Source of the DNA: Phyllobates terribilis
Taxonomy: Eukaryota
NCBI RefSeq assembly: GCF_046119375.1
Contig: NW_027362762.1
Span: forward strand, 681,070,001-681,134,000
Reading direction: 5' to 3'
Length of the DNA: 64,000 bases
In this document: positions 20,561 through 62,129 of the stretch, piece after piece
Layout: each line of letters starts with the position of its first letter
Numbering within the stretch: the stretch's first letter is position 1
Program-made: the position numbers and the translations under genes
Notes under the pieces: generated by a model
Database searches by the model: none
What the model was told of the DNA's origin: nothing
The model's input: only the letters and a program-made list of their open reading frames with translations

Positions 20561-21126
20561 TGGGTCGCATTATAATAATATTGCCCCCTGTGCCTACTTA
20601 TAATTTTGTAGGAAAGTGGGGGGTGCGTCTTATAGTCTGAATACTAGCCATAGTATATACTATATAATGTGGATGGTGGCGGGTGTGTGTGTGTGGGGGG
20701 AGGGTTTGGGGAGTGGCAGTGGGGGATGAGTGGGGCACAGGAGGAAGCTGGCGCCTGCTGCAGCCTACCCTGTGCCTACTGCTAAAGAAAATTAATATTC
20801 ACTACTCCCCACGCCCATAGGCGTAGATATCAATGAATATTCATTTTCCTCAATAGCGCGCACACTATAGACGCACCGCGGCTCCTGCTGTGCTCGGCGG
20901 TCGGTGTGCCCACTATTAAAGCCCATGAATATTTACTGCAACTCACTCCCATAGGTTTTAGTGAACATTCATGGTCTTTAATAGTGGGCATTTTTGAAAA
21001 AACTATCGCACTTTCCTGATGTTGGTTCGTGCCCAGTTAAGGTACCAAGCCCATTATAAGTCTATAATAACCCGGCACTCAGACTTTAGTTACATTTTCT
21101 TGATTTTTAATGAAGTTTAATACAAT

Positions 21127-21166
21127 GTACAAACGTTTCGGTCACTCAGGACCTTCATCAGGGTCC
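21127..21166 (-). ncRNA. Minimal type I hammerhead ribozyme (3' pLTR copy, stem I mismatched)
   Basis: CTGATGA-A-GGTC-ctgagt-GACC-GAAACGTT on the minus strand; stem I GGACC/TGTAC has two mismatches. Confidence 0.65.
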
Positions 21167-24087
21167 TAAAACAACAAAAATAATATAGATAACAATCAGT
21201 ATATGGTCACAGAGGTTAAGGAAAAATAGCCAATATTTACAAAATATATATGACATGTAGTTTATGTCAATTGAGAACTACCTGTCATGGGAGGGTCAGG
21301 GAAGGAGGGGCAGGAGGCATGAGGTGGATGTCCCATAAAAGAAAGAAAAAAGAAAGCATATCAGTATATGTGTAAGGTTTTCATAAGGTGAACAGAAGCC
21401 ACCAAGGAGGCTGTGAAAAAAGAGGGTATTGTTAAGGAAAGACACTGATAGCCGCTGCAACCAAACAAGGGTCAGTGGTGGACACATACCTTGTGTAGAT
21501 GCATGCGCTGTATGACGCTCTGGGAACGCGGTATTCACCACTTGTTCCTGTGATGTGCGGTGTGCAGAGAATGTGAATAAGCCTTTTATAGGCTGTGGGT
21601 GGGTCCTATATGGATACACTAGACATTGGTGGTAGTGGGACGCCGAAAATGCGCGTTGTTGAAGGACCTGCCGGACCAGAAATGACGCGGCGGACGCATC
21701 ATCAGGTCCTGTGACTAGGCGGCGGTCACGTTGGCGGAAGTGATGTACCACTTGCGTTCCATTTCGGAGGCTTTGCGTTCCACTGCGCGGCTGGTGTGAA
21801 TGGCTGGCTATTACAGGGGATATTACAAGAGTGTTGCACATAGGAGAAAAAGAATCCAGAGTAGGGACATCAGGAGGGATCAGGGAAGAAGGCTGGGATC
21901 TAGGAAGGATTCTGGGGAATAAGAAAAAAACGTTAGAATATGTACAGAAATGCATATGTCAAAATCTAAATACTGTATATGAAAGACACTATTGAATATA
22001 TATAGAGTTTATACAGACATATTCTTGATGAGACACATATTGTACATAAGACAAAAATAAATGTAAAACAGACGATCCCATACCTAGTCAAGACGTGGCA
22101 GGTGCTGGAAATCTCATGTGTGGGGACCAAAATTAATACGGGTTCAACATCAGGTTTATGATATTGTTTATTTACGGGATATTGTTTAGGTAAAAGACAG
22201 AAGGTCATATTCTCGGTTCAGTCCTCTAGGTGTAAGCGATTGTAGTTTGTGAATACAATAGGCTTCACGGCATTTAAGCATACATATACTGTCTCCCCCT
22301 CGGCGTGGTAACGGTACGTGGTCCATAACCTGGAATTTAAGTTGTGCAACTGTATGGCCGGCTGATGTGAAATGATTGGGCAAAGGCAATAGTAAGTTCT
22401 TATGACGCGCCCCTGGGCCTGCTGTGTCGTGCGGCATCGCGCACACGGGGGCTTACCCGGAGCCGGATCAGATGGGGGTAGTAGTCTCGTGGCGGTGACC
22501 CGGTCCGTGCCCAGGGAGTCAAACTGGACGGCAGTCTATTAGCAGTAGATGTTGTACGACTACGCCACCCGTTGAATGCAGCTATGAGGCTGCCGCTGCA
22601 GGACAGTCCGCTGAGGCCGGTGATATGATTGTGCAGCGTAGATGGTATAACCCCCAACGGGAGGGGTATGGCCTCAGGGCAGCAGATGTAGATGATGGAG
22701 GAAGTGATAGTGCAGCAAGGAGACTCAGACACGTATGATGCAGTTTCAGGGTGTTTACTCACTGATGTTGCTTTAGTCTCTTCGGCCGGGAGTGACCACC
22801 CGAGCCGTACTGCGTTCACCAGGTGCGGGACTCGGCTAACCCCCAGGCAATTCCGGAGCGTGGTCCTGAGCTTCCCTCTCACTCTCTTTCTCCTGGCCGT
22901 CCCCACCAGGGATCCACCTTTGTCCGGTTCCCTTGGGCCTTCTATGGTAAAACCTTCTCCGGCTTTCCTGACCCTACTCTTGGTGTACCTTCCTGGTGGA
23001 TGTGGTGAGGGTCGTGGCAAAACTTAACCACGACCTCCGGTTCCTGGTTAAGGGTTACTTTTGCCTCCGCCAGCTTGGGATCCGGTGCCCTCTTCTGCCA
23101 ACCCTTCACCCTTATTGGTTTGCTTCTGGGATCTTAGGGTTCCCTCTTTCTGCGTCTCTGGGCCTTCCTTCTTCCTCTCCACTACAAGCCTGGCCCTGGA
23201 GCTGGGCCCAGCCGGAGCCACAGCTCCCTGTCAGCCCTCCTGGCTGAGCTCCTCTGCTCTGCTTCTCCTCAGACTGAACTCGACCCTGTCCTAAGATGGT
23301 GCCCACCATATATACTCCCTCTATGTGTGAGCCCAGGTGACCAGCACCCAATGGGCTCCTAGCTTTACCCAGAGTACTCCCCCTATCTGCCCCTACACTA
23401 CTGGGATGTTCCACCCCCCCTCCCACTCCAGCCAGGGACAGACGCTGTCGTACCTGCACATCTATTTGGTGGGAGTACCGTAGTTCTGTCCCCCGGAAAT
23501 GGTATGTATGTAGTGCATGCAGCCTACTGAGCTCAGTCCCACACTCCATCCTTATCCGGGAGTGGAATACCATACCTCTGGTTTGAGGTGCAATACCCCT
23601 GCAGCAGCCGAGTCCTCAGGGTGCTACATTCCCCCCTGGTAAATCACAGCACGTCCTCGGGCTGTAAAAGAGCAAAACAATATAAAACATACAAACTTTT
23701 GCAAAACATACACCAACATATAAAACATTATAACCATTATCAGATTCTAGCAATATAAACTTTTTCATATAAAACTCTTTTTTTATATAAAATGTTCTTG
23801 AGTTTCTGGCCACTGTGCACTTGTGACCAGGTAAAAGTGCAACAGTACAAAAACAGTTCCTTATAAAACCGGTAGGGGGCGCTTTAGGAAGCGCAACTAT
23901 ATACAGGATATGGCCGCTCTCAGTCCTCGGCCAGTGGGGATAAGGGATGGCTGTTCACAGTCCTCAGCCTGGGTAGGGATAGGGACACACGGGTAACAGT
24001 TTGCTGGTCCCAACGGGGACTATACTTTACTGGTAACAGTTCTTGTACCCTTACGGGTAACTATTTACAGTTTCACTGTACCGTACT

Positions 24088-25689
24088 TTAATAACGGCAT
24101 CCTCCTGCTCCTCCTTGAGGGTAATCTTCAGACCCGTCCGGGTCCTCTTGACCTTCCTCAAACCGCAGCTCTTCCTCAGTCAGTGGGTGCACATGAAGAG
24201 CATATGGTCCCTTAGCACACTGATGCCGGGTGAAGGTGACCTCATCACCCAGGTAAAGATCACGTCCTCTGTGTCCCTCCGGCAGATGGCTCTCGACGTC
24301 CCTGCGGGTGACAAAGACGTCGCCGGGGGTTCTGTGGTCCCGGATAAAACCCCAACCGTGCTGCAGTTGAAACTTGATTACGGTCCCGGTGGCGCGGGGA
24401 CCATGGGCTGCACGGGGGTTTCGCCTGGTCCAGCTCTTCTGTTCCGCACTCTGTACCTGCAGCCGCTCCTCGCGGACCCGCCTCTCTCGCCGTTCCCGGT
24501 CGAAGACCTCCAGCTGTTGCCGGCAGCACTCTGCTCGCTGGGCTGCGGCCGCCCGGGTCTCATGGGTGAACCCAATGAGGTTTTCTCCGGTGGGGTCCCA
24601 TTCGAATTGGGCCTCCTCCAACGGGAGCGGGACGATCTTGACAGGCGCCGGAGCCGGAATCAGGGGCTCACACAGAGGCCTTTCCTTCCGGAGTCGGGGA
24701 TGGAGGTACTCCGGTGGCCACTCAAAGGGCTGCCCATCCGGGCAAGTGTGCTGGGCGAACAGGTCTTCACCCAAGGGTAGGACTTTGTGGGTTGAGGGCG
24801 CGGTGGTGGCAGCGGCGCCCGGGTTCACCAGGCCTTGCGACCAGGCCGGTGGCACTCTAAAGGTAAAGGGCACTGTGGAGACGGCGGCGCCCGGGGGTAC
24901 TCGGCCCTGCGACCAGGCCGGTGGCGTCTCCTGCTTGGCCGTGCTCGGGGTTGAGGCGCGTGTCGTCACAGGGGGCGTGGTCGCGGCTCCTGCTTGAGGC
25001 CTAGTCTGGAGCGGTGGTGGTGCAGCGACAGGCACGGTAGGGGGAATTTCGGGCTCTGCGACGGGGAGCTGGGGCAGGCTCACGGTTTCTAGGCTTGGGG
25101 TAGTGACGTCCCCTTTACCTGCCTCCGTCTCTTCAGCTCCTTCCACGGCGTCGTCTCCGGCCTTCATTCCTCCTGCACCATCCTCAGAGGCGGTCAGACT
25201 CCTCGTCTCGGGTGGCGTGCTCCGCTGGCGGGTTCCAGCCTGCTGGGCCATCTCCCTACTCCACTCAGTCAGCGTTTCTCGCTGCACCTGGGCCATCCTC
25301 CGTGCGAGGCCCTCCAGCGCGGTCTGTGCACGCTCCCGGTCTCGGGGGAGCTGTGCCAAGATCTCCACCAGGTCTTGTGGGGTGGTGGCTTGCAACAGGC
25401 TCCTGACCACAGGGTCGGTGCTGCCTGACTCTCCCTCCATCTCCGGGTGCGAACTCTCCAGACTCCTCCAGGCTGCACCCATCCTCTCTCTTTTGTTCTT
25501 GATCCGCCCACTTTTTTGGTGGTCCCGGGGCAACTTGGTGATTGTCAGTTCCAGGGGCAGCCCCCCCACGCTGATGGACATCTCTACCATTGTAGTCTCT
25601 GCTGGTGGGGGCGGTCTCCGCTTTTGGCGCTCTTCTGGGACCTGGCCCACGATGGGAGGTGGCCTCTTGCCACCCTCTGGCACGCCCAT
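24088..25689 (-). CDS. 533-aa protein: helical N-terminal block, Pro/Ala/Thr-rich linker, conserved unknown domain, charged helix, C-terminal cold-shock (OB-fold) domain, acidic tail
   Basis: Intact ORF; GTVIKFQLQHGWGFI (RNP1-like)...DVFVTRRDV (RNP2-like)...LYLGDEVTF...KGPYALHV follows the canonical CSD pattern. The true start may be a downstream ATG. Confidence 0.85.
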   Translation of the reverse strand: MGVPEGGKRPPPIVGQVPEERQKRRPPPPAETTMVEMSISVGGLPLELTITKLPRDHQKSGRIKNKRERMGAAWRSLESSHPEMEGESGSTDPVVRSLLQATTPQDLVEILAQLPRDRERAQTALEGLARRMAQVQRETLTEWSREMAQQAGTRQRSTPPETRSLTASEDGAGGMKAGDDAVEGAEETEAGKGDVTTPSLETVSLPQLPVAEPEIPPTVPVAAPPPLQTRPQAGAATTPPVTTRASTPSTAKQETPPAWSQGRVPPGAAVSTVPFTFRVPPAWSQGLVNPGAAATTAPSTHKVLPLGEDLFAQHTCPDGQPFEWPPEYLHPRLRKERPLCEPLIPAPAPVKIVPLPLEEAQFEWDPTGENLIGFTHETRAAAAQRAECCRQQLEVFDRERRERRVREERLQVQSAEQKSWTRRNPRAAHGPRATGTVIKFQLQHGWGFIRDHRTPGDVFVTRRDVESHLPEGHRGRDLYLGDEVTFTRHQCAKGPYALHVHPLTEEELRFEEGQEDPDGSEDYPQGGAGGCRY

Positions 25690-25923
25690 AATGGCGTCCG
25701 CTCTGCCAGGGCGGGAAATCGTCTCAGATGGCGGGAATCATCTCCCAATGGCGGGAAACTCTGTGGATGGCGGGAAAAGACTGCAGATGGCGGGCAAACG
25801 GCGGGAAACGATCCGAGATGGCGTCCGATGGCGGGGACCCTCCGGAACCGGCGGGAGACTTCTTCTTACGGTACAGATAAACTTTTCTTCAGGCACGCAG
25901 TACCCGGTGGTAGCGGGCACGTG

Positions 25924-25941
25924 ATCCTGCCGACTACGCCA
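25924..25941 (-). promoter_or_regulatory. PBS, tRNA-Ser(AGA/TGA) type
   Basis: TGGCGTAGTCGGCAGGAT on the minus strand; complementary to tRNA-Ser ...ATCCTGCCGACTACG-CCA as recalled. Confidence 0.85.
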
Positions 25942-28336
25942 AAGTTGACGCGCCCCTGGGCCTGCTGTGTCGTGCGGCATCGCGCACACGGGGGCTTACC
26001 CGGAGCCGGATCAGATGGGGGTAGTAGTCTCGTGGCGGTGACCCGGTCCGTGCCCAGGGAGTCAAACTGGACGGCAGTCTATTAGCAGTAGATGTTGTAC
26101 GACAACGCCACCCGTTGAATGCAGCTATGAGGCTGCCGCTGCAGGACAGTCCGCTGAGGCCGGTGATATGATTGTGCAGCGTAGATGGTATAACCCCCAA
26201 CGGGAGGGGTATGGCCTCAGGGCAGCAGATGTAGATGATGGAGGAAGTGATAGTGCAGCAAGGAGACTCAGACACGTATGATGCAGTTTCAGGGTGTTTA
26301 CTCACTGATGTTGCTTTAGTCACTTTGGCTGGGAGTGACCACCCGAGCCGTACTGCGTTCACCAGGTGCGGGACTCGGCTAACCCCCAGGCAATTCCGGA
26401 GCGTGGTCCTGAGCTTCCCTCTCACTCTCTTTCTCCTGGCCGTCCCCACCAGGGATCCACCTTTGTCCGGTTCCCTTGGGCCTTCTATGGTAAAACCTTC
26501 TCCGGCTTTCCTGACCCTACTCTTGGTGTACCTTCCTGGTGGATGTGGTGAGGGTCGTGGCAAAACTTAACCACGACCTCCGGTTCCTGGTTAAGGGTTA
26601 CTTTTGCCTCCGCCAGCTTGGGATCCGGTGCCCTCTTCTGCCAACCCTTCACCCTTATTGGTTTGCTTCTGGGATCTTAGGGTTCCCTCTTTCTGCGTCT
26701 CTGGGCCTTCCTTCTTCCTCTCCACTACAAGCCTGGCCCTGGAGCTGGGCCCAGCCGGAGCCACAGCTCCCTGTCAGCCCTCCTGGCTGAGCTCCTCTGC
26801 TCTGCTTCTCCTCAGACTGAACTCGACCCTGTCCTAAGATGGTGCCCACCATATATACTCCCTCTATGTGTGAGCCCAGGTGACCAGCACCCAATGGGCT
26901 CCTAGCTTTACCCAGAGTACTCCTCCTATCTGCCCCTACACTACTGGGATGTTCCACCCCCCCTCCCACTCCAGCCAGGGACAGACGCTGTCGTACCTGC
27001 ACATCTATTTGGTGGGAGTACCGTAGTTCTGTCCCCCGGAAATGGTATGTATGTAGTGCATGCAGCCTACTGAGCTCAGTCCCACACTCCATCCTTACCC
27101 GGGAGTGGAATACCACACCTCTGGTTTGAGGTGCAATACCCCTGTAGCAGCCGAGTCCTCAGGGTGCTACACTTACAGTGTATAGTAGATTTATGTTTTG
27201 ATATACGATCTTTAATGGGTTGTGTAGTATCTCCAATGTAAATGAGTCCGCATGGGCATTTGATTAGATAAATCACAAAGGTGGATTTGCACGTGTAATA
27301 GTCCTTAATTTGGTATTGTTTACCTGAATGTGGGTGGTAAAATGTATTACCTCTGGTGACATTGTTACACTGGTAACATTGTAGACATGGAAATGTGCCG
27401 GTTTTCGGATTTGAGAGAAATCTTTGTCTGGGTAAGGTATTGGTTGTTCCAAAATCAGCTCGGATGAGTTGATCCCTGATGTTCGGGGCTCTCTTAAAGC
27501 AAGGTAAGAAGGGGCCATTGAATTCTGGTACAGAGGGATATGCAGTTTGTAGTATTTTCCAATGTTGTCGGATTTTTTTATGAAGAATGAGTACCGCCGG
27601 ATGGTAAGTATGAACAAAAGGAATGCGGTTAGAGGCGGTGGGGGGCGAACGTTGGCCCTAGGTTGTAAGAATTTTTTTTAAAAGATCGGGGTGGGGTGGG
27701 GTATCCATGTTCCTCAAACTGCATTTCTTTAAGACTGAGGTCACACATGGTTGCGTCACTGACTATCCGTTTAACACAATGGAATTGTGACTTCGGGATT
27801 GAGGAAATCGTGGATTTGGGGTGTAAGCTGTCGAAACGGAGTAATCCGTTCCGGTCAGTAGGTTTGACATAAAGGTCAGTGGAGAGTATCCCCTCCTGGT
27901 TCTTAATAACCCTAGTGTCTAGGAAGTTGATGGAAACAAAATCTGAGGAGATCGTGAATTTGAGTCCCTCTCATGCTGAGTTGATACTGTTGAAAAATTA
28001 TTTGAGTGACTCAACCAAGCCCCCCCATATGCCCTTCTTTGGTTGCAGCGGCTATCAGTGTCTTTCCTTAACAATACCCTCTTTTTTCACAGCCTCCTTG
28101 GTGGCCTCTGTCCACCTTATGAAAACCTTACACATATACTGGTATGTTCTCTTTTTTCTTTCTTTTATGGGACATCCACCTCATGCCTCCTGCCCCTTCT
28201 TCCCTGACCCTCCCATGACAGGTAGTTCTCAACTGACATAAACTACATGTCATATATATTTTGTAAATATTGGCTAATTTTCCTTAACCTCTGTGACCAT
28301 ATACTGATTGTTATCCATGTTATTTTTGTTGTTTTA

Positions 28337-28376
28337 GTACACTGATGAAGGTCCTGAGTGACCGAAACGTTTGTAC
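28337..28376 (+). ncRNA. Minimal type I hammerhead ribozyme (inverted pLTR copy, intact stems)
   Basis: GTACA-CTGATGA-A-GGTC-ctgagt-GACC-GAAAC-GTT-TGTAC: stems I and II perfect, palindromic AACGTT stem III as in dimeric PLE hammerheads. Confidence 0.75.
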
Positions 28377-35075: not shown

Positions 35076-36390
35076 TGTGGCACGCCAGGTCTGGTCGCCA
35101 CAGTGGCAGCAATGTCATGTCTGAGAGCAGATGGGAGGTTCCCTGGTTGGGGACAATTAGCATGCAGCACCTCCTGCCTCAGTCCAGGGAGGGGAGAAAC
35201 CTGCCCTTTAACCCCGCCCCAGATCCAGTTTATAGAGAGACAGGTTCCAGACAAGTTCCTGGCAAGGTTCCAGTGAAGTTGCAGATAGGGACAGGTCAGC
35301 AGCATGCTGAGGAGTCCCTGTAGGCAGAGGAGGAACACGAGGCCAGGAGGGGAGCTAACAGAGCTCGTCCTGGCTAGAGACTTACAAAGCCGGACACTGG
35401 AGTCCGAGGCTGTGAGGGTTATAAGCCCAGCAGCAGAAAACCACCACGCAGGGGACTTCAAGTCCTCTGGCCCAAGGAAGCCCGGAGGCTCAGCCACATG
35501 AGAGGGACCACTACTGCCCCAGAAGGGTGAGAGGTACGGAAGGCCCGAGTCGCCAGTCATACGGGTGAGAACAACATGGTACACTCAGGGACATGGGCTA
35601 CCACTACACTACAGCGGGATAGCCAAGAAAGAGTGAAGTCAGCACGGTAGGCCTGCAAACTCTCCCTGACCAGTGGAATTTCCCAGTTGCTCTCAGACTG
35701 ACAAGGCCTCCATTGTTAACCTGTATTCCGGACAGGTCCCTTAATACCACCAACAGTAAAGACCCTGAATTGAATGACAGACTCCGTGTGGTTACTGCTG
35801 CTCCCGCACACCATCACCACCAATATCCCCATTTACTGCCTTGAGGCTATACTCCTCCCATGGGAGTTATACTACCCTCTGCTGCACCCACAACACCAGC
35901 CTCAGCAGTCTGCCCTGCAGCGGCGGTTCACTCTGACCGCAATCCACGGGTGGCGTAGTCGGACATTCAGCATATAGACTGCCATTTGGTTTGACTGCCG
36001 TGAGCACGCACCGGGTCCCCGCCACGCAAGGACTACAACCCCCAGCATCTACAAAAGATCCGGTTCCGGGTATCCCCACACACACACGGCCCAGGGGGCG
36101 CGTCAACTTTTGGCGTAGTCGGCAGGATTTCGTGCCCGCCACCAACGGGTACTGCATGCCTGAAGAAAGACTGTAATACTTACCTTGGTGGAGTTTCCCG
36201 CCATCGGGCACCATGCGGGAAGAAGAGAGGCGTGGATGACGAAAGCGCGCGAGAACTGGAGCCCCGCCTTACGCACGGACGCTGCGCAAGGTCCTGAAAG
36301 GAGCCGAGCGGAAGCTGACATCACCAGGACACGACGCAAGGTCCTCAACCCCGATGGTCGCCTGCGGAGCCGCGGCCTACAGAAGAAAAG

Positions 36391-37640
36391 TGTGACGCCT
36401 CTACTCTTAAAGCCCGTGTTTTACCCTGGGTGTTAGGGGGACTCGGTGTCGGGCCCTGTGATGGAGAGGTAGGATGCAGCCGTGGCCCGGGCCCGACCCG
36501 TGCTCGGGGCCGTCACATTAGAAAGAGATGGTATGGGCTTGTCCGGGTTGAGTGGCTGATTAACGACTACGCCACCTGTGTTGCCTGGTGAAGGGTCACC
36601 AGCGCCGCTGCAGTCCGCCGAGGCCCGGTGTCACGGCGAGTCGTGCGGTGTGACGCAGGAATAACAGTCCGGAGGCCATAGGGGTGAACTTCCAAGGCTT
36701 TACTCACTTAGATGGCAAAGGAAGGCGACTCCCTGCTCCCCACGGAGTCCTGCGGTCACCAGGGACGGGGATCCGACAGCCTCCGAGTAAGTCCAGCATT
36801 CAGTCGGGACCTTACACCAGAGTGTTCCTGAACTACAGACCAATTCCCTTCCTGTCCGTGTGTGTGCAAATAGGCCGGGTCTCCCTCTGAGCTCCTCTCA
36901 GAACAAGGGGTACGGGTAGCAGCTCCGTCCGATACTCGGTGGGATCCTCTGGGCCTAACCGGGCTTTCCCGTCCAGGAGGTAGAGTAGCAAGGTCGGGTG
37001 TCGGGGGCCGGTACCCCTCTTGCAGCCGGAGTCCCTCTGAATATATCAGCAAGGCGAGGACAGGTGGTGTACACAGCTCCGTCTGCATCCTGCCTGGGAT
37101 CCATTTGCTAGGGAGCCACACTCTTAAACTCCGGGCCTTCTTGATCCTGGTCCTTGGCCGGGTTGAGACATTCCTTGTCTACAACCTACCTCTCGTCCCG
37201 AGGCGAGGGTACGAGGGCTGTGTCCCTTGCCTTTGCAGGCCCACACAGGATCTGCGCTCCCGGAGGGAGGTCACATTACACACAGTAGCCTGACAGCACA
37301 GTACGACCACATGAACTTGATTAACTAGGACCAGCAAAAGGACGAAGGGCCAAGATCAAAGATGGCTTTCAATTAAATAAGAAATCTAAAGTGTAACTAA
37401 CTTATAAGTCCTCCACCCTCACCCACTAACTGGTTCCTACCACTTTGTGTTCCCCAGTCTCCTTGTAACCAGGGGAGCAGCACCTAGTGCCTATTTGCTC
37501 CCTCTGGTGGAGAAGTGTGGTGTTGGATGCAAAAGGTTAGGTCCCGACTATCACACTGTCCTTACCTCAGAGGAGGAATACCACACTCCACTAGAGAAGT
37601 GCAGCATCCCTGTGGCGGTCGAACCCTCAGCGGCGCCACA
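36391..37640 (-). mobile_element. Solo LTR C inserted in the Gypsy B leader
   Basis: TGTGGCGCC...GGCGTCACA on the minus strand; perfect TSD AAAG; U3 start resembles the 4018 LTR and the CSD LTRs. Confidence 0.85.
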
Positions 37641-37683
37641 AAAGCAACAGAAGGTAGGCCACGGTCGACTAGGGGGGAAGAAG

Positions 37684-38640
37684 ATGTTGGAAGCGGGGGG
37701 AACTGCCGCAGTAATGCCGTTCACGATGCCTTATATCCCCGGAGCGGCCTGGTTGCCCCAGTACTCAGGGGAGTTGCATACCCTGAGCGACTTTAAAGAG
37801 AGACTGTATAGCCTATTCAAAGTATACCCCCTGACGGAGGAACAAAAAGTGACCATACTGATAGGCCAGTTAACCGGCGCGGCCCAACGAGAAGTAAAGT
37901 CCTGGTCAGTCAGGGACAAGGGTACCGTTAAGGAGATTTTAGCCCGTCTAAAGGACACTTTTGATACCCGCACCTCAGCAGAGATCAAAATGAGATTTTA
38001 TGGGTGCAAGCAGCGGGCCCAAGACAGTATAAGAGACTATGCTTTGAATTTGCAAGAGGCCCTGAGAGCCGTTAAGCAGGCACACCCTGACAGTGTGCGG
38101 AATTCAGATAAACTGCTGACTGAACAATTCATTGAGGGTCTGCTGTCCAGCGCCCACCGAACCCAGTTAAGCCTAATGGCCCTGCAGAACCCTGAGTTAG
38201 ACTTTGCACAGTTTAAGGACAGAGCCATCCGGGTACTCCAAGGCGTTGCGGACTCCAGGCACCCTGCTATCACTTATTACCAGGAGGCGGCGCCCCAGTC
38301 TATAGAACCTGCAGGAGCCAATGCACAGACTACGAATAGTACCCCGTCTACAGACCTGCACCATCAGGTCCAAGAACTGACCAAAAGCGTTGCCGCACTA
38401 ACCAGGACTGTGCAGTCATTACAGGTATCCTCTCCAGGAAAGATCCAGCTGGCTACCAGTCCGGAGGACGTCACGTGGTGCCGACAGAAGAGGATCCCAC
38501 CATCCAGAGGGAAGCCAACGGACCGCTACGACCAGGATGGACAACCCATCTGCCGCCGCTGCAGCCAGCCAGGACATATTGTGAGGTACTGTAATTTAAA
38601 TGAGCCCAACCTGGGGCAGAGGGCCAACCCCCAGGCGTAA
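37684..38640 (+). CDS. Gypsy B gag (PNMA-like capsid plus CCHC knuckle), open frame of 318 aa
   Basis: ATG 37684; PYIPGAAWLPQYSG; FYGCKQRAQDSIRDY; ICRRCSQPGHIVRYC; slippery TTTAAAT at 38595-38601. Confidence 0.8.
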   Translation: MLEAGGTAAVMPFTMPYIPGAAWLPQYSGELHTLSDFKERLYSLFKVYPLTEEQKVTILIGQLTGAAQREVKSWSVRDKGTVKEILARLKDTFDTRTSAEIKMRFYGCKQRAQDSIRDYALNLQEALRAVKQAHPDSVRNSDKLLTEQFIEGLLSSAHRTQLSLMALQNPELDFAQFKDRAIRVLQGVADSRHPAITYYQEAAPQSIEPAGANAQTTNSTPSTDLHHQVQELTKSVAALTRTVQSLQVSSPGKIQLATSPEDVTWCRQKRIPPSRGKPTDRYDQDGQPICRRCSQPGHIVRYCNLNEPNLGQRANPQA

Positions 38641-41600
38641 GATCATCAGGCCCGTCAAACTGGCGTGACAAGTATGTGGGGGGACAACCAGTCTTGCCTG
38701 TGGTACTGGATGGCATTCCTATGAGTGCACTGTTGGACACCAGTTCACAGGTAACCACCATCCCCTATGTACTTTTCAAGCGGTACTGGAATGACACGGA
38801 TATTACCCGCTACCCAGATAATGACTTGAGAATCATCGCCAGCAATGGTCAGCCCGTGCCGCAGGTGGGGTTCAAGGAGGTGACCATCAAGATTGGTAAG
38901 GTCGAACTGCCGGCGCAGGGACTGATTGTTGTGGACATTGACCGTCGTGAAAGTCACCCTAAAATAACCTTGGGTACTAACGTTATTGAAAATTGTCTTT
39001 CAGAGATAATTGGTATATTACAGCAGGTTGCAATGAATGCCAGCTCCAGCCAGCAGCGTGTCTTACAAAAAGAGATCAGAGCCCTGACGAAGCGGCAACA
39101 GGTAGAACTGTCTGGTGGTGAGATTGGTAGCGTTAGGATGAGTGACCCGTTCCCTATCGCCATGCCCCCAAAAAGTGAAATGATGATCTGGTGCCGGACT
39201 GCAATCGGGTTGAGAAGTAGAGACTACCAAGCTATGGTAGAACCCGTTTACTCAGACAGTAGGCCCACCATTTTGACAGCACGGGGGGGTGTTTGATGTC
39301 CGCCATGGGAGGGTACCCGTCCGCATCCTAAATATTGAGGAAAGAAGTACACTTGCCCCGGTATGCCACTCTAGCCAAATTGTTCACCATTAACCAAAAC
39401 TCTGTAAAAGCCATGGAACTCTTGCCTCCATCTCCCACAGAGGAAGGTAACGGCTCTAAAAAAAAAAAATGGAGGACTGGTGCTAGAAGCTGCACGTGGG
39501 CACTGACTCCACTCCCCCATGCCAGAAACAGGGAGTCTACCGGGTGGTTCAGGAGTACGAAAGAGTCTTTAGCAAACACCCGCTAGGCTTTGGTGTTCCA
39601 CCCGCTTTACTTGCCCAAATTCCCATAGGAGACCATCCACCCATAAAAGAGAGATACCGGCCTGTACCCCCTGCACACTATCAGAGTGCCAAGGGTATGT
39701 TACGAGAAATGAAGGAGGCTGGGTGATCAGGGATAGCTGTAGCCCCTGGGCAGCTCCTCTAGTTCTTGTAAAAATGAAGGATGGCACGATGAGGATGTGT
39801 GTAGATTATAGAAAGGTCAATAGAATAGCACACAAAGATGCGTACCCGTTACCTAGGATAGAGGAGTCTTTGGCAGCATTAAAATCTGCTAACTTATTCT
39901 CTACTTTGGATCTCACTAGCGGGTACTGGCAGGTTCCTGTAGCAGAGTCAGACAAGGAGAAGACCGCCTTCATCACCCCGATGGGTCTCAGTGAATTCAA
40001 CTGTATGCCGTTCAGACTCTGCAACGCGCCAGGGACCTTTCAGAGGCTGATGGAGTGCTGTCTGGGGCACCGAAATTTCGAGACGGTCCTGCTATACCTG
40101 GACGATGTCATCGTGTATTCCAAGACCTATGAGGACCATCTAAAGCACTTGGCAGAGGTGTTCGATGCCCTGGCAGGCTTCGGCCTAAAGGTGAAACCCC
40201 CCAAGTGTCATCTACTGAAGCCAAAAGTACAGTACCTGGGACACGTGGTGAGTGCTGACGGAGTAGCCCCAGACCCTGACAAGATCACGGTGATTAAGGA
40301 CTGGCCAAGACCCTCCAGCATAAAGAAGGTGCGGCAGTTCCTCGGGTTGGTAGGCTACTACCGAAGATTCATCTCCGGGTTCACCAAAATGGCAGCCCCT
40401 ATGCAGGACCTCCTGTTAGGTCAGTCAAAGACTAAAAGTCAGAAGCTGCCCTTTAAGTGGGACAAGCTGGAGGAGGAGTCTTTCCGCCAGCTGAAGATGG
40501 CCCTCACTGGGGATGAGATCCTGGCCTATCCTGATTATGGCCAGCCTTTTATCCTCCACACCGATGCCAGTAACGTGGGGCTAGGAGCCGTACTGTCCCA
40601 GATCCAGCAGGGCAGAGAACGGGTAATTGCTTATGCTAGCAGAAAGCTGAGACCCACAGAAAGAAACCCTGAGAATTAAAGCTCCTTCAAGCTAGAGTTC
40701 CTGGCAGTGGTGTGGGCGGTCACCGAACGCTTCAAGCATTACCTGGCTTCTTCTAAGTTCACTGTGTACACGGACAACAACCCATTGACACACCTGGACA
40801 CTGCAAGACTTGGTGCCCTAGAGCAGAGATGAATGGCCCGGCTGTCCAATTATGAATTTACTATCAAATACCGGACAGGGCGCGCAAATGCCAACACAGA
40901 TGCATTGTCCAGAATGCCTCACTTGCAGGACGGGGGAGAGGATCCAGAAGAACTGGAAGAAATTGAACTCCCTGCATTCCACCGTCATGGGATCACCCAA
41001 TGTTCCCACTGCGTAAAGGAGAGGTGCTCTGCCACAGCTACGTTCAATCCCTTACCCCACCATGGCTGGGCAGAGACAAGATAGTGACCCCACAGTCCGC
41101 CTGGTAAAAGAGATGCTGACCCAGGCTGATGCCCACCTTGATCCGGATGCTCCAGAAGAGACCAAACCGCTGTGGAAGGAGAGGAGCAAGCTGTTTCTCT
41201 ACGAGGGGAGGCTGTGCCACAGAATGTCAACTCTCGAACACATGAGCTGACCTGGCAGGTAGTGGTCCCAAGGCGGGATGCGGCTATGGTCCTAGAAGCA
41301 TACCATGACGGATCAGGGCACTTTGGATGGAAGAAGCTGGAGTTCCTGTTGCGTGAGCGGTTCTTCTGGGTAGGCATGAGAGGGGCTATAGAGAGATGGT
41401 CCAGAGACTGTGGCCCGTGCAACCTAAGGAGGAAGGACAGCGCCAGCCAGAAGACTCCCCTGCAGCCCATCATCACAAAGCAGCCCCCTGAGCTGGTGGC
41501 CCTGGACCACGCAAAGCTCGCTCCAAGCAGATCGGGATACGTCTACTCCCTCAGAATAGTAGATCACTACTCCTGATTCCTAGTGGTTGTCCCTGTCAAA

Positions 41601-42398
41601 GACTTAACACGTCAGACGGCCGCCAGTGCCTTTCAGCAGCATTTCTGCCGCCCACACGGGTATCCAGAGCAAGTGTTGACTGATCAAGGTCCAGCGTTCG
41701 AGGCTGAAGTCTTCCAGGAATTCTGCAACCTGTATGGCTGCAAGAAGATAAGGACAACGCCTTACCACCCCCAAACCAACGGGATGTGTGAGAAAATTAA
41801 CCAGGTAGTACTAGACCTGCTCAAGACGTTGCCCCTGGAGGAACGCAGCCTGTGGCCTGAGAAACTGCCGGATCTGGTGGACTTGTATAACCATATCCCA
41901 GTAAATTCTACCAACTACACCCCAGCTTACCTAATGAGAGCAAGACATGGTAAGCTGCCAATTGACCTGGAGATGAGAGTCCTGACACCCGAGGACACCT
42001 CACCAGAAGCAGACTGGGACACAGAACGACAGCAGCAGTACCGGAAAGTACAGGAGAGTGTGGAGCGAAGTCTGTCTCAAGCAAGAGAGGGGCAAGAGAG
42101 GAATTACAACCAGCATGCTCCTGCTGCTCCCCTGGCACCTGGAGAGCAGGTCTTGAAGAGGAAGAGACGGCTCCACAAGTTGGATGACCAGTGGGAGAAA
42201 GACCCGTACACCGTACTGCCCTCAAGCCATGAAAACCCAAAGGTATGTGTTATCATTAAGGATGGAGGAGAGACCACAGCCACTGTCTCCAGAGACCACC
42301 TGAAGAAGTGTCCTGAGCAGCTGCAAAGTGCTGATGAAGACCAAGATAGCCCTCAACCCGCAGAGGAAAGGGAAGAAATGGTCAGTACAGTGCTCTGA
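38640..42398 (+). pseudogene. Gypsy B pol (PR-RT-RNase H-IN), disrupted
   Basis: LLDTSSQVT, SPWAAPLVLV, LYLDDVIVYS, HTDASNVGLG, HHCC, DHYS, TDQG, GMCE; several stops and frameshifts. Confidence 0.92.
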
Positions 42399-44152
42399 GA
42401 ATTTTCCCGGTCCTGGACACAAATCAACAATGCTATAGTGGTACCCGTCCTTACCTTTCTCCAGCCAGCCCCTCAAGGGCCTGCAGAAGAGCAAGTAGTG
42501 TTGGTAGAGCAAGTGGCCCTGGAGGCAGAGAGTACATACCAGCAGCTCAGGAGAATCAACCCTCTGCTAGTAGTGAACCTGCCATGCCCGTGGTGAGCCA
42601 AAGAGTATGCAGAAAGCTGCCCAACCTACCAGTAACATCTGCAAACACCTCTAGTGCAGACACGAGCACACCCTGTACACAGGGGGTGGAAACAGGGGAC
42701 CCAAATGGAGTACCACCAGACAAAGGGGGTTACGTAGGTCCAACAGGAGCACTAAAAGTCAGGTACCCGCTCGCTAGAGAATCTAATATGTCGTATTTAC
42801 CTGTATAGATGCAAAAATTAAAAATGTTTAATGTTTGTGTTACCTGGTTATTAATTATGTTTTTCGAGTTCAATGGACTAACAGGTTATGGACAATGAAT
42901 AACCGGAACTGTACCTTGTACATAGTTGCACCTGGTAAGGTGCCCTCTTTTGAAGACGAACACAGAACACAAAACCCGTGGAGGTAGCTGAAGACGTGGT
43001 CCAACTCCGGATCATCAAAGCCCTGTAGCCACCCCAGGGCCTACGTGGAGGGTTTGGGACGGGTCCCTCAAAGTGCATCTTGGTTGACAAGGACACCTGG
43101 TCACGGGGGCGCTATGACCTAAAAAGACTAAACTTCTTGTATATATGTTACTGTATTGTTATTACCTGTTGTGTTTTTGCAAAATGTGTTTAGTCCCGGA
43201 GTACTAAATTTCACTAGGGGGGAATGTGGCACCCCAGGTCTGGTCGCCACAGTGGCAGCAATGTCATGTCTGAGAGCAGGTGGGAGGTTCCCTGGTTGGG
43301 GACAATTAGCATGCAGCACCTCCTGCCTCAGTCCAGGGAGGGGAGAAATCTGCCCTTTATAAACTGGATCTGGGGCAGGGTTAGAGAGACAGGTTCCAGA
43401 CAGGGTTCCAGACAGGGTTCCAGTGAAGTTGCAGATAGGGACAGGTCAGCAGCTGGGTGAGGAGTCCCTGTAGGCAGAGGAGGAACACGAGGCCAGGAGG
43501 GGAGCTAACAGAGCTCGTCCTGGCTAGAGACTTACAAAGCCGGACACTGGAGTCCGAGGCTGTGAGGGTTGTAAGCCCAGCAGCAGAAAACCACCACGCA
43601 GGGGACTTCAAGTCTTCTGGCCCAAGGAAGCCCGGAGGCTCAGGCACACGAGAAGGACCACTACTGCCCTGGAGGGGTGAGAAGCACGGTAGGCCTACAA
43701 ACTCCCCCTGACCAGCGGGATTTCCCAGTTGCTCTCAGACTGACCAGGCCTCCATTGTTAACCTGTATTTCGGACGGGTCCCTTAATACCGCCAACAGTA
43801 AAGACCCTGAATTGCATGACAGACTCCGTGTGGTTACTGCTGCTCCCTCGCACCATCACCACCAATATCCCCATTTACTGCCCTGAGGCTATACTCCTCC
43901 CGTGGGGAGTTATACTACCCTCTGCTGCACCCACAACACCAGCCTCAGCGGTCTGCCCTGCAGCAGCGGTTCACTCTGACCGCAATCCACGGGTGGCGTA
44001 GTCGGACATTCAGCATATAGACTGCCATTTGGTTTGACCGCCCTGAGCACGGACCGGGTCCCCGCCACGCAAGGACTACAGGACCCAGCATCCACAAAAG
44101 ATCCGGATCCAGGTATCCCCACACACACACGGCCCAGGGGGCGCGTCATTTA

Positions 44153-57425: not shown

Positions 57426-60400
57426 TGTAGCACCCCAAGGGCTCGGCTGCTACAGGGGTATTGCACCTCGAACCAGAGGTGTGGTATTCCACTCCCGGGT
57501 AAGGATGGAGTGTGGACTAGAACTCAGTTAGCTGCATGCACCACATACATCCCATTTCCGGGGGACAGATCAACGGTACTCCCACCAGATAGATGTGCAG
57601 GTACGACAGCGTCTGTCCCTGGCTGGAGTGGGAGGGGGGGAGGAATATCCCAGTGGTGCAGGAGCAGAGAGGGGAGGGACTCTGGGCATAGGAAGGAGCC
57701 CATTGGTGGCTAGTCACCTGGGCTCGGGTGTCAGAGGGAGTATAAAAGGTGGGCACCATCTTAGGAGTTCAGTTCAGTCAGACAGAAGAAGAGGAGAAGA
57801 GTAGTGACAGGGAGCAGCAGCCCTGTCTGGGTGCTGCTCCTGAAGGGAGCAAGAGAGAGAAAGACAAGAGGAAAGGAACAAGGAACAAGGAAGGAATGGA
57901 ACCTGGAGAAAGGCTCAGAGACATGAAGGAAGAGGGAACCCGAACACGCTAGGAGTCAGCGGGTGAAGGGTTGGCAGATCAGGGTACCGGATCCCGAACT
58001 GGTGGAGGCCACTTATCCTCAGCCAGGAACCGGAGGTCGTGGCCACGTCTTGGCGCGACCACTCACTACACTCACCACGAAGGCACGCCACATAGGGTCA
58101 GGGAAACCGGAGATAGGTTTCGCCACCAGAAGGCCCGAGGAAGCTGGACATGGGTGGGTCCCTAGTGGGGACGGCCAGAGAAAGGAACGGAGAAAGGAGT
58201 TCAAGGTCACACTCTGGAACTGCCTGGGGGTTGGTCGAGCCCCGTACCTGGTGGACGCAGCACGGCTCGGGTCGTCATCACCTGCAGGACTGACACTGAC
58301 AACATCTGTGAGTAAAGCATTGAAAACTGCAATCAGTCTCTGTGTTCCATCGCACTACCAGCACTAAAGGTACTAGGACGCCCTTTCTATCACTCCCTTC
58401 ACCCGCACCAGCTGCCCTGAGGCCATACCTCTCCCGTTGGGGGTTATACCACCATTGCTGCACACATACCACCGGCCTCAGCGGACTGTTCTGCAGCGGC
58501 GGCCTTGCGACCGCAAATCAACGGGTGGCGTAGTCGACACTTAAACAACATCTACAAAGACTGCCACACACTTAGTTTGACCACCCTGGGCACGGACCGG
58601 GTCCCCGCCACTCGGAGACTACTACCCCCATCGGATCCGGCTCCGGGTATTCCCCCGCGCACACGTGCGCCGCACTACAGCACTGGCCCAGGGGGCACTT
58701 CAACTTTGGCGTAGTCGGCAGGATCTCGTGCCCGTAACCACCGGGTACTGCGTGCCTGAAAAAGAGACTTTTTACTTACCTGTGGTGAAGTTTCCCGCCG
58801 TCCGGAGTCGTTTCCCGCCATCCGGAGCCGATTCCTGCCATCCGACGCCATCTTCTGCCTTCTTCCCGCCATCCGTGGAGTTTTCCCGCCATTGGGCGCC
58901 ATCTTGAGGACGCCGCGCTGGAAGAAGAGGGGTGTGGACTCCGAAAGCCCGCGAGAACTGAAGCCCCGCCTCACGTCCGGACGTTGCGTAAGGTCCTGGA
59001 AGGAGCCCAGTGACGCCGACGTCACAGGAGCGCGACGGAAGGTCCTCAACCCTGACGATCCACTGCGGAGCCGCGGCCTACGGAAGAGGATCATCGCCAG
59101 GTAGGCCACGGTCCACTAGGGGGGAGGGGGATGTCGGATACGGAGGAGAGCTTCACCGCCACAGCCGCCATACCAGATTGCAGAGCTGCTAGCGGTGCTC
59201 CAGAAGGAAGAACCGGAGTACGCGCAGGCCGCGCTGGAAGAGCTGAACAGGAGGATGATCTGGGCGCAACGAGACGTGCTCGCCGGGTGGAAGGAGGAGT
59301 TGACCCGGCGCACGCTGACCTGCCAACCGGAGGTGCAGCCACCATCCAGCACCGCGTCGATCCCGAGAGGCAGCAGAAGCGGACCGGAGGCCGGGGACGA
59401 CGCCGCGGGGGAGGCCGCAACGACAAGTAAGGGGAACGCCGTTACTCCGGGCCCTGAGGCCGCGGACCTGCCCCTACCTCCCGCCGCGGGACCCGAAGCT
59501 CTGGGTGCCGCACCGCCCACCGTACCTCCACCACCAGTAGTCAGCCCTCCAGCAGCAAGCTCTGCAGCGGAGCCTCGCCCTGAACCGTGCTCCCCAACAC
59601 CGGGCACGATCAGAAAGTCACAGGCCTGGTTAAAAGGCCGAGTGCCCGCGGGCGCTGCACCCCAGCCGGGGCCCCCAGTCGTGCCATCATTGGGGAAAGA
59701 CCTGTATGAGCAGCACACCTGCCCGGATGGGACACCATTCGCCTGGCCGCCTGAGTACACCAACCCCCGCTCCAGGAAGAGTCATCCCGTAGGAGCAAGG
59801 GCCCCAGATGAACCGCTAATCCCAGCTCCGGAGCCCGTGGACCTCTCTTCACCCCGCTGGAGGACGCCCAATTTGAGGGGGACCCCACTGGAGAAGACCT
59901 GATGGGGTTCACTCAGGAGACCCGGGCGGGCGCCGCCCGGCGCTATGAGACCTGCCGCCAACAACTGGCAACGTTTGAGCGGGAGCAGAGAGAGAGGAAA
60001 GTGAAGGAGGAGTGGCTCCACATTAAAAACGTGGAGCAGAAGACAAGGACCCGCCAGGACCCCCCCGTACAGCTCACGGTCCCCGAGTCACCGGGACTGT
60101 TGTTAAGTTTCACATGGCATGTGGCTGGGGCATCATCCAAGACCCGAAGACCATAAGCCAGGTGTTTGTAAACAGGAGCGACGTAGAGTCCCACCTACCG
60201 GAGGGGCACAGTGGACGGGACCTGGTGCCTGGAGATACCGTCACCTATACCAGGCATAAGGGAGTGAAGGGGTGGTACGCCCTTCATGTCCACCGGGTCA
60301 AGGAAGAAGAGGAGCAATCGTACCAGGAGGAGGAGGAGAAAGAGGGCCCGGACGGATCTGAACCTGAGGAAGAGAAAGGAGCGTGTGTAGCACACCGTTA

Positions 60401-62129
60401 ATCGTAAACGGTAAAAGAGGAGATGTAAATAGTTACCCGACCGGGTATAAGGACTGTTGTGGGACTGTTTCCACTAAGAGTGTGGTCCCCGTTGGGACAG
60501 AAAGAGAACTGTTGCCTATTTTTGCCCTAATCCCTAACCTGACCGAGGACTGAGAGCGGTCATCCCTTCCCTCTACCTGGCCGAAGACTGAGAGCGGCCA
60601 GATCCCAAGATCCCAAGAGCCCGAGAATTCAAGAATGTTTTATTTGAGAATGCCTTAATGTGAAATTTGATATGATGCCAAAGTTTTACATAGTGTTTTT
60701 GTAAAAGAGTTCCGGTGGCATTAGCCAGCTGTTGAGAAAACCTCCCATAAAGGGATGGATGAAAGTTGATGTGTTTTATGTGTACGTACACTTTAAAAAT
60801 AGTTTTTACTCTATTTCAGCCCGAGGACGTGCTGTGGTTTACCAGGGGGGAATGTAGCACCCCGAGGGCTCGGCTGCTACAGGGGTATTGCACCTCGAAC
60901 CAGAGGTGTGGTATTCCACTCCCGGGTAAGGATGGAGTGTGGACTAGAACTCAGTTAGCTGCATGCACCACATACATCCCATTTCCGGGGGACAGATCAA
61001 CGGTACTCCCACCAGATAGATGTGCAGGTACGACAGCGTAGGTCCCTGGCTGGAGTGGGAGGGGGGGAGGAATATCCCAGTGGTGCAGGAGCAGAGAGGG
61101 GAGGGACTCTGGGCATAGGAAGGAGCCCATTGGTGGCTAGTCACCTGGGCTCGGGTGTCAGAGGGAGTATAAAAGGTGGGCACCATCTTAGGAGTTCAGT
61201 TCAGTCAGACAGAAGAAGAGGAGAAGAGTAGTGACAGGGAGCAGCAGCCCTGTCTGGGTGCTGCTCCTGAAGGGAGCAAGAGAGAGAAAGACAAGAGGAA
61301 AGGAACAAGGAACAAGGAAGGAATGGAACCTGGAGAAAGGCTCAGAGACATGAAGGAAGAGGGAACCCGAACACGCTAGGAGTCAGCGGGTGAAGGGTTG
61401 GCAGATCAGGGTACCGGATCCCGAACTGGTGGAGGCCACTTATCCTCAGCCAGGAACCGGAGGTCGTGGCCACGTCTTGGCGCGACCACTCACTACACTC
61501 ACCACGAAGGCACGCCACATAGGGTCAGGGAAACCGGAGATAGGTTTCGCCACCAGAAGGCCCGAGGAAGCTGGACATGGGTGGGTTCCTAGTGGGGACG
61601 GCCAGAGAAAGGAACGGAGAAAGGAGTTCAAGGTCACACTCTGGAACTGCCTGGGGGTTGGTCGAGCCCCGTACCTGGTGGACGCAGCACGGCTCGGGTC
61701 GTCATCACCTGCAGGACTGACACTGACAACATCTGTGAGTAAAGCATTGAAAACTGCAATCAGTCTCTGTGTTCCATCGCACTACCAGCACTAAAGGTAC
61801 TAGGACGCCCTTTCTATCACTCCCTTCACCCGCACCAGCTGCCCTGAGGCCATACCTCTCCCGTTGGGGGTTATACCACCATTGCTGCACACATACCACC
61901 GGCCTCAGCGGACTGTTCTGCAGCGGCGGCCTTGCGACCGCAAATCAACGGGTGGCGTAGTCGACACTTAAACAACATCTACAAAGACTGCCACACACTT
62001 AGTTTGACCACCCTGGGCACGGACCGGGTCCCCGCCACTCGGAGACTACTACCCCCATGGGATCCGGCTCCGGGTATTCCCCCGCGCACACGTGCGCCGC
62101 ACTACAGCACTGGCCCAGGGGGCGCGTCA
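57426..62129 (+). mobile_element. CSD2: second LTR element carrying a cold-shock-domain ORF
   Basis: 1277-bp LTRs 57426-58702 and 60853-62129, about seven differences by eye; perfect TSD TAAC; PBS 58707-58724; PPT 60841-60852. Confidence 0.92.
59131..60401 (+). pseudogene. CSD2 ORF, homolog of 24088-25689, with three apparent frameshifts
   Basis: Blocks LGKDLYEQHTCPDGTPFAWPPEY, EPLIPAP, GFTQETRAGAARRYETCRQQL and CSD GTVVKFHMACGWGII...VFVNRSDV...GDTVTY...KGWYALHV across frames; breaks near 59170, 59845 and 60065. Confidence 0.85.

Follow-up and report, generated by a model that had tools for sequence, protein, structure and literature searches.

A frog LTR retroelement whose sole gene encodes a cold-shock-domain protein, a candidate passenger of tRNA-Ser-primed Gypsy elements

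Introduction

Among non-autonomous long terminal repeat (LTR) retroelements, LARDs are noncoding and TR-GAG elements encode Gag. The TRIM and SMART elements, including Helenus and Ajax, are described in the available part of one account as shorter than 1 kb, devoid of a mobilisation protein and moved in trans by Gypsy or Copia elements (PMC10886601). In Xenopus laevis, 1A11 and Xretpos/lambda-olt 2-1 are embryo-expressed LTR elements that carry an open reading frame (ORF) and lack pol, according to the accessible text (PMC4585706). A survey of birds, also available in part, describes 46 endogenous retroviruses (ERVs), classified by their reverse transcriptase (RT), that captured the cold-shock domain (CSD; PF00313) from the host several times (PMC12287698). 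Here we analyze a stretch of 64,000 nucleotides (hereafter the window) from the poison frog Phyllobates terribilis (contig NW_027362762.1, positions 681,070,001 to 681,134,000), which contains, at 22403..27171 on the minus strand, an intact LTR element of 4,769 bp whose only gene encodes a CSD protein.

Many LTR elements are left unclassified in the preprint on a poison-frog genome, whose main text, in the form available, does not contain the words "cold shock" (bioRxiv 2023.11.06.565769). An earlier note on this DNA, made from its sequence alone, knew of no description of such an architecture, and we found no description of an LTR element with a CSD ORF as its only gene in the literature searched, Repbase, Dfam and subscription journals lying outside the search. 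We find that the family to which the window element belongs is real, abundant, recently active and selected. Its members are non-autonomous LTR elements that are most likely copied by Gypsy Gag-Pol, and their selected protein would be a leaky, self-preferring, putatively RNA-binding accessory.

Results

An intact LTR element with a single gene

The window element has the parts of an LTR retroelement, namely paired LTRs with TG...CA termini, a primer-binding site (PBS), a polypurine tract (PPT) and a short target-site duplication (TSD) (Table 1). The complete cis apparatus listed in the earlier note (LTRs, the TSD CTTA, an 18-nt PBS and a PPT), together with the 533-codon ORF, was found again in full. 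There are 8 mismatches between the two LTRs, a divergence of 0.0066 that gives an age of about 1.3 million years at the rate of 2.5e-9 taken from the available text of the poison-frog preprint (bioRxiv 2023.11.06.565769). The final ~300 bp of the LTR, by inference its U5, is the portion common to gag-pol Gypsy elements, and the PBS complements the last 15 genomic nucleotides of tRNA-Ser(AGA/TGA) plus CCA. Short TYCCGCCAT repeats occur in the 5' leader and in the leaders of the presumed Gypsy helpers as well; the leader may be the packaging signal. The conserved protein blocks of the ORF start after the Met at window 25440. The set of genes that between LTRs would define an autonomous Gypsy (Metaviridae) element, gag with protease, RT, RNase H and integrase, is missing from the element.

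Table 1. Features of the window element and of related elements in the window
Feature	Position in window	Strand	Remarks
TSD CTTA	22399..22402, second copy 27172-27175	+	flanks both LTRs
3' LTR, 1,226 bp	22403..23628	-	paired with 5' LTR
3' untranslated region	23629..24087	-	terminates in pyrimidine tract and CAG, short hairpin, PPT
Single ORF, 533 codons from first ATG	24088..25689	-	sole gene
CSD	24187..24399	-	predicted five-strand barrel, Y-box-length loop; omega 0.10
Trp-containing block, then W-D-x-x-G-E-x-L-x-G-F motif and 45-residue charged helix	24421..24774	-	conserved; helix predicted; Trp block omega 0.24, motif/long-helix region omega 0.15
Pro/Ala-rich linker	24775..25248	-	predicted disordered; omega 0.84; internal duplications
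N-terminal helical block	25249..25404	-	predicted two short helices and one long; omega 0.16
N-terminal extension, 83 codons	25441..25689	-	omega 0.67, nearly neutral
5' leader	25690..25923	-	about 80% identity with helper Gypsy families
PBS, 18 nt	25924..25941	-	4-nt spacer after LTR; complementary to tRNA-Ser(AGA/TGA) 3' end
5' LTR, 1,226 bp	25946..27171	-	TATA-like box at LTR position 315; AGTAAA poly(A)-like signal at 870
Gypsy B	35076..44148	+	gag (PNMA-like, one CCHC), protease, RT-RNase H, integrase; stops and frameshifts
Solo LTR of third CSD lineage	36392..37640	-	83-87% identical to L193 LTRs; in Gypsy B leader; TSD AAAG
CSD2	57426..62129	+	related element; TSD TAAC; helper-derived leader and gag ATG; ORF in three frames

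Pfam recognizes the CSD alone in the ORF (31.7 bits against a gathering cut-off of 27, E 1.4e-7); RT, protease, integrase, PNMA/Gag and CCHC gave no Pfam match in it, and a CCHC motif is absent. The CSD is modelled as a five-strand OB barrel at a pLDDT of 95, with TM scores of 0.82 to CspA and 0.76 to the CSD of YBX2, so that both checks proposed earlier, a Pfam search and a structure prediction, returned a CSD. The model of the conserved 450 residues (mean pLDDT 56) passes from N-terminal helices through ~155 disordered residues and a 45-residue helix to the barrel and a short helix. No capsid-like helical bundle is predicted in it, and an hhalign profile comparison with the Gag of local helpers, from shallow alignments, gave a probability of 0.1%, in agreement with the earlier view that the protein holds no recognizable capsid; a remote origin of the 60-residue helical block from Gag is still conceivable. 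Fold searches with the 450-residue model, in which the CSD dominates and the other parts were barely probed, yielded nothing but CSD/OB folds; in the ESM Atlas the N-terminal helices had no usable match and the C-terminal part had only leads below 0.9.

The element is flanked by 394-bp inverted repeats of 96% identity at window 21078-21471 and 28032-28425, and seems to have inserted into a DNA transposon with long terminal inverted repeats. Near-identical copies of the window element, of CSD2 and of Gypsy B recur about 222 kb away (contig C2, 680.8-681.45 Mb), those of Gypsy B several times within this interval, and the window therefore sits in a segmentally repeated region.

An abundant and recently active superfamily

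In the 10.6 Gb of genome searched, a 20-mer from the window-element CSD has 16,791 matches with up to two mismatches, against 21 for its reversed control. Of 15 lineage representatives tested, the 20-mer catches 7, and the count is therefore a minimum for the superfamily. A similar 20-mer taken from the gag of Gypsy B has 7,641 matches and catches 4 of 6 tested gag copies, which makes the two counts roughly comparable only; the 33,000-42,000 candidates of first-look searches are not copy numbers. Related proteins are recorded in Ranitomeya variabilis, R. imitator, Anomaloglossus baeobatrachus and Bufo bufo, as protein records in which the LTR context is not visible. The copy-number check suggested in the earlier note thus yields at least 16,791 superfamily matches and, by protein records, three other frog genera. 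This cross-species evidence excludes the records P0002, P0003 and P0125, of which P0002 is by inspection nearly identical to copies in the searched genome. The proteins of Phyllobates terribilis, which are the nearest named matches, are likewise not counted as independent.

Twenty copies were chosen by position from exact matches on contig C1, with a CpG-rich word that biases the sample to young copies. None of the 20 has gag or pol between its LTRs. An LTR pair enclosing 2.36-2.54 kb was recognized in 18, the remaining two being masked by larger repeats, and 16 of the 18 pairs are at least 99% identical, some up to 100%. The long open frame is kept in 16 of the 20 copies and broken in four. 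A genome search with PF00313 listed 150 rows, and the 30 that were fetched comprise 21 element-type loci, eight CSDE1/UNR loci and one YBX-like pseudogene. When 20 element-type loci were extended to 10 kb, LTR-type repeats or ends surrounded the CSD in 17, none of which has RT or integrase between the repeats, and three showed no LTR pair.

A search with a Bufo bufo relative led to a second lineage (B), which has a distinct 1.03-kb LTR, an identical PBS and an ORF with a basic N-terminal region and the CSD in its middle. The junction of LTR end and PBS of lineage B occurs 567 times exactly in the genome; among the first 30 such loci, 27 have a CSD within 1.5 kb and none has a gag, protease or RT match downstream of the PBS. 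Additional CSD lineages carry other LTRs or a second PBS type. Short CSD elements with an ORF cut right before the CSD were seen on contigs C1, C5 and C4 (L092, L102 and L104, respectively); two of the three have the second PBS type, which is also the type at window 2204, and the internal region of L104 is about 1.4 kb long. Contigs of four sequencing runs, which bear three organism labels and whose RNA status is a guess or unknown, cover all 30 element bins, as a record of presence only.

Element CSDs also turn up in annotation. The Bufo bufo gene models P0081, P0130 and P0134, and likewise P0125 and P0129, are named Y-box-binding protein 2-A-like or have the CSD fused to host genes (R3HCC1, a serine protease, an astacin); they are probably ORFs of the elements that annotation took for genes or parts of genes. 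Transposon ORFs may stand behind some of the frog gene models that are called Y-box-like.

Selection acts on replicating lineages

Codon models for lineage A were run on 11 subfamily representatives, with eight sequences for the N-terminal extension. The CSD has an omega of 0.098 (11 sequences, p 9e-59); the corresponding values are 0.147 (long-helix region), 0.159 (N-terminal helices), 0.242 (Trp block), 0.67 (N-terminal extension), 0.84 (linker) and 0.57 (tail). Thirteen pairwise omega values agree with these models, and the CSD of lineage B has an omega of 0.101 (nine sequences, p 5e-33). The earlier impression that the ORF looks selected is thus borne out by the dN/dS check in both lineages.

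Changes private to single copies were set against shared changes in the N-terminal helical block, which lies outside the search query. The comparison leaves out the row for coiled coil plus CSD, which the search query biases, and a CSD2 coiled-coil row in the wrong frame. Across 25 close copies of the window-element subfamily, private changes in this block are neutral (12 nonsynonymous and five synonymous, pN/pS 0.99) whereas shared nonsynonymous changes are depleted (three and five, pN/pS 0.25), the counts being small in both classes. The 20 copies picked by pattern give 0.16 for shared and 0.43 for single variants over the helix and CSD (p 0.002), and no significant difference between the two in the N-terminal helices (p 0.38). 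With private mutations neutral and shared ones depleted, selection is seen to act on replicating lineages and not on inserted copies. This bears directly on the idea that the host maintains the ORF as a domesticated Y-box-like gene family, an idea to which the NCBI gene models for some copies, such as the Y-box-binding protein 2-A-like models of Bufo bufo, lend some color. Copies whose private mutations are neutral, which are dispersed and young and four of which in 20 are broken, are not what such maintenance would leave, and we consider domestication very improbable.

A remodelled cold-shock domain

The RNP1/RNP2 residues W65, F74, F85 and H87 of YB-1 contact nucleic acid, according to the available text (PMC7498358). 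Across 19 aligned rows of element CSDs, the F74 equivalent is retained in 16, position F85 is aromatic in all 19, K or R stands at the equivalent of position 118 in 15, and a new aromatic occupies the equivalent of E121 in 18; the full Y-box set of four contact residues is not preserved. As judged from these residues, the CSD surface is remodelled relative to YBX1 and non-canonical. The "canonical CSD" of the earlier note is therefore right as to the PF00313 match and the predicted barrel and wrong as to two of the contact residues, the W65 and H87 equivalents being lost in 18 of the 19 rows. One lineage-B ORF has a CSD of 24.8 bits, below the PF00313 cut-off.

In a tree of 41 rows and 71 columns, built without YBX or Lin28 rows, the 30 element-type CSDs, two of them unnamed proteins, form one group with support of 99/99, separate from bacterial, CSDE1 and other CSDs. 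Against a profile built from all lineages, YBX1/2 reach 55-58 bits, bacterial Csp no more than 45 and Lin28 no more than 25; among solved structures, Y-box CSDs match it best. A single capture from a host Y-box gene, with remodelling afterwards, is the likely origin of the domain. The YBX-like pseudogene (L081) finds only itself in a genome search, has no protein match at E 1e-8 and is not among the rows of the tree. Intronless, partly tandem CSDE1/UNR retrocopies lie at contig C1:734436389-734450760 (L061-L066), and exons of the apparent CSDE1/UNR parent gene at C2:7027-7028 Mb (L067, L068).

Gypsy helpers and trans-mobilization

The PBS of Gypsy B is of the same type as that of the window element. 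Nineteen elements of the Gypsy B family match the window element at 70-76%, and only over the last ~300 bp of the LTR, the PBS and the beginning of the leader, whereas other Gypsy families (L195, L198, L205) match its U5, PBS and leader at 80-87%; the U3 and R of its LTR match none of the helpers inspected. Gypsy B, with which the earlier note saw CSD2 share its leader, is thus not the closest helper family, and the leader of CSD2 has a 98% match elsewhere. No CSD ORF was found in the 19 Gypsy-B-family elements, two weak Bufo-CSD matches inside LTRs being treated as noise, nor in the L195 gag-pol element.

Genomic tRNA-Ser(AGA/TGA) genes have 3' ends that match the PBS. A longer tRNA motif has 28 matches, and the 20 stretches fetched are five tRNA genes and 15 LTR elements in which the PBS runs into tRNA-Ser sequence for up to about 50 nt, with CCA included; six of these loci have a CSD, six have gag or pol, and three have neither nearby. 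CCA is not encoded by the five tRNA-Ser genes seen, and read-through beyond the normal stop on the tRNA primer is a known error of reverse transcription. The over-read sites are therefore fossils of tRNA-Ser priming in elements that lack RT. In the first four loci with the tRNA pattern ARAGORN called no tRNA gene, and they proved to be LTR elements with an over-read primer. Insertion targeting of gag near L190, L193 and L196 was likewise rejected, the gagB matches there stemming from the solo-LTR part of the query.

Young dispersed insertions, no enzymes and cis signals shared with helpers are the marks of a non-autonomous LTR element moved in trans, and, from these sequence features, the Gag-Pol of tRNA-Ser-primed Gypsy elements almost certainly does the moving. 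The earlier proposal of a non-autonomous family with tRNA-Ser Gypsy helpers is thus supported by the lack of gag and pol inside all 20 copies, by the PBS over-reads and by a helper-leader recombinant, CSD2. The window ORF could instead be a decayed gag or accessory gene of an autonomous Gypsy and the window copy an internal-deletion derivative, and the ATG and the first nine or so codons of CSD2 do come from a helper gag; the autonomous elements inspected are also a small sample. However, the Gag profile probability and the predicted model without a capsid-like bundle, the U3 and R unlike those of inspected helpers and the steady internal length in 18 of 20 copies leave this explanation largely refuted, with hardly any probability. 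An ORF that is part of ordinary autonomous elements, which the earlier note had named as fatal to its proposal, was not seen in the 20 copies or in the 19 Gypsy-B-family copies.

The protein might instead enter helper particles and act there as an additional nucleic-acid chaperone, for tRNA annealing or strand transfer; it would then supplement the nucleocapsid and partly aid the Gypsy elements themselves. CSDs are single-strand nucleic-acid chaperones, helper Gag has a single CCHC knuckle, and U5, PBS and leader are common to element and helpers, all of which would suit this role. The protein, however, has no sequence or profile likeness to helper Gag, and neither the 19 Gypsy-B-family copies nor the L195 element carry a CSD ORF, so that these helpers do not encode one themselves; we judge the role improbable beside that of an accessory to the element's own RNA.

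At window 23629-23672 on the minus strand, the pyrimidine tract and CAG before the PPT read as a splice acceptor and overlap a short hairpin. The same position was examined in L091, L193, L163, L169 and the L195 element, and the acceptor-like site and hairpin are common to lineage-A elements; lineage B has a different stem there, and helpers have, by eye, a complementary pair before the PPT that the folding program did not choose. The tract and hairpin may be a cis signal held in common. The pol of a third Gypsy is interrupted by a LINE-like element (window 45393-48247, minus strand) with frames for RT and an endonuclease-like protein, of which L101 holds a 99% identical copy.

CSD2, a broken relative with a helper leader

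The CSD of CSD2 scores 27.5 bits with PF00313. CSD2 is the separately inserted relative that the earlier note took it for, but its ORF, in which conserved protein blocks had been seen, is broken over three frames. The gag-derived ATG with which it starts does not share the frame of the helical block, and the frame changes twice more after that. Up to and through this ATG its leader is identical at 415 of 423 bases to that of a full-length gag-pol Gypsy, and would best be read as the product of a template switch between co-packaged RNAs. The same ~124-codon frame is common to more than 100 of the 150 matches listed, on many contigs; of six sister copies of CSD2, five are divided between two frames and the sixth has a single frame of 427 codons. 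The insertion of CSD2 lies within a hAT transposase region that has decayed (Dimer_Tnp_hAT; window 54894-57400 and 62130-62966).

Discussion

We propose the following course of events for the CSD elements. The element would be transcribed from a promoter in its own U3, and helper Gag would recognize the common U5, PBS and leader; helper RT and integrase would then produce new insertions with 4-bp duplications. By its long helices the protein may associate with itself, and it may coat RNA in its vicinity, mostly its own template; such a coat could make that RNA more stable, better localized or more readily taken into helper particles. Any such benefit would be incomplete and leaky, since a subfamily with a broken ORF still spread.

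Several observations weigh against this proposal. The closest helper match for the window copy is only 80-87%, and no gag-pol partner was seen among the 30 lineage-B loci. The W65 equivalent is retained in one of 19 rows and that of H87 in one of 19, and nucleic-acid binding may consequently be weak or altered. As to the source of the domain, a profile of lineage A only ties CspA (34.2 bits) with YBX1 (33.2 bits), and the tree carries no host YBX sequence; since the all-lineage profile favors YBX and the lineage-A profile does not, a Y-box origin is likely and not shown. Finally, none of 30 fetched copies of the CSD2 subfamily has the long helix and the CSD in a single frame, and the subfamily multiplied all the same, so that the protein is not essential in cis for copying. 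The earlier suggestion that the protein serves the packaging of its own RNA therefore fails as a strict need in cis.

A broken subfamily that reached more than 100 copies is what is expected of a cheat on a shared good, and the protein might act mainly in trans on the host, with a benefit common to passengers and helpers. It would then be a competitor or mimic of Y-box proteins, directed at FRGY2/YBX2 masking or at YBX1 control of messenger ribonucleoproteins, or would blunt germline silencing by small RNAs. The remodelling of the CSD surface relative to YBX1 agrees with such a role, and so does the repeated capture of CSDs by bird ERVs, which its authors, in the part of their report available, consider possibly adaptive (PMC12287698). 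It is nevertheless hard to see a purely shared benefit persist at an omega of 0.10 over many lineages and tens of thousands of copies because broken copies should take over, and 16 of the 20 sampled copies are intact, albeit in a sample biased to young ones; we regard action mainly on the host as rather unlikely. The intact lineages far outnumber CSD2 and their omega is near 0.1, and the benefit is most easily explained as returning mostly to the encoding RNA, as expected of a leaky, self-preferring accessory.

A wider scenario can be sketched, which we hold only tentatively and with some doubt. The elements may form a satellite class of LTR elements in hyloid frogs, in which a domesticated and remodelled Y-box domain took the place of gag-pol. 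With its protein as a self-preferring RNA coat or adaptor, this class would out-compete helper RNA for Gypsy particles; it would also swap leaders to track new helpers and in turn be exploited by noncoding cheats such as CSD2. If true, this would be a three-tier parasite system contributing to the giant genomes of poison frogs.

The CSD family gives a name to part of the unclassified LTR fraction of poison-frog genomes reported in the available preprint text (bioRxiv 2023.11.06.565769). Strong selection on the family operates on the elements themselves and spans at least 16,000 matches on several LTR backbones. Non-autonomous LTR elements are usually noncoding or Gag-keeping, whereas this family keeps a selected, host-like and putatively RNA-binding protein that is not Gag. 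It opens a test of what limits LTR-element RNA in the germline and of whether a passenger can gain an edge through a protein of its own, and the natural occurrence of intact and broken subfamilies allows action in cis to be compared with action in trans.

With the Y-box proteins YBX1, YBX2 and FRGY2 the element CSD shares the fold, the long beta3-beta4 loop, F74, F85 and usually K/R118. Unlike them it is without the W65 and H87 equivalents, has gained an aromatic at E121, forms one protein with helical blocks and, in lineage A, is not followed by an alternating basic/acidic tail; identity is about 30%. LINE-1 ORF1p, the essential protein of autonomous non-LTR elements, also places an RNA-binding domain, in its case an RNA-recognition motif, after a long helix and favors its own RNA; the likeness is an analogy of layout only, and no homology is claimed. 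Replication-defective transducing retroviruses of the v-onc type depend on helpers and carry a captured host gene, and are short-lived and selected through cell growth. The CSD family, in contrast, is resident in the germline and has diversified over several LTR backbones and frog genera.

TRIM and SMART elements, as described in the available text, have LTRs, a PBS and a PPT and are moved in trans by Gypsy or Copia partners, as the CSD elements would be, but the latter are 4.6-4.9 kb long and encode a selected non-Gag protein (PMC10886601). The Xenopus elements 1A11 and Xretpos, too, are LTR elements of a frog that have an ORF but nothing homologous to pol. The 1A11 protein, however, resembles Gag, and the accessible text mentions no CSD; the tens of ORF copies of these elements compare with more than 16,000 matches for the CSD family, and the authors suggest that they lost mobility whereas the CSD family has copies with identical LTRs (PMC4585706). 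The bird ERVs are, like the CSD elements, retroelements with a PF00313 domain captured from the host. They differ in encoding RT and in the varying position of the CSD, and the part of the report available mentions no selection test and lacks the word "purifying" (PMC12287698). The CSD family has no gene besides its CSD ORF, its helpers would be Gypsy elements and its domain has an omega of 0.10.

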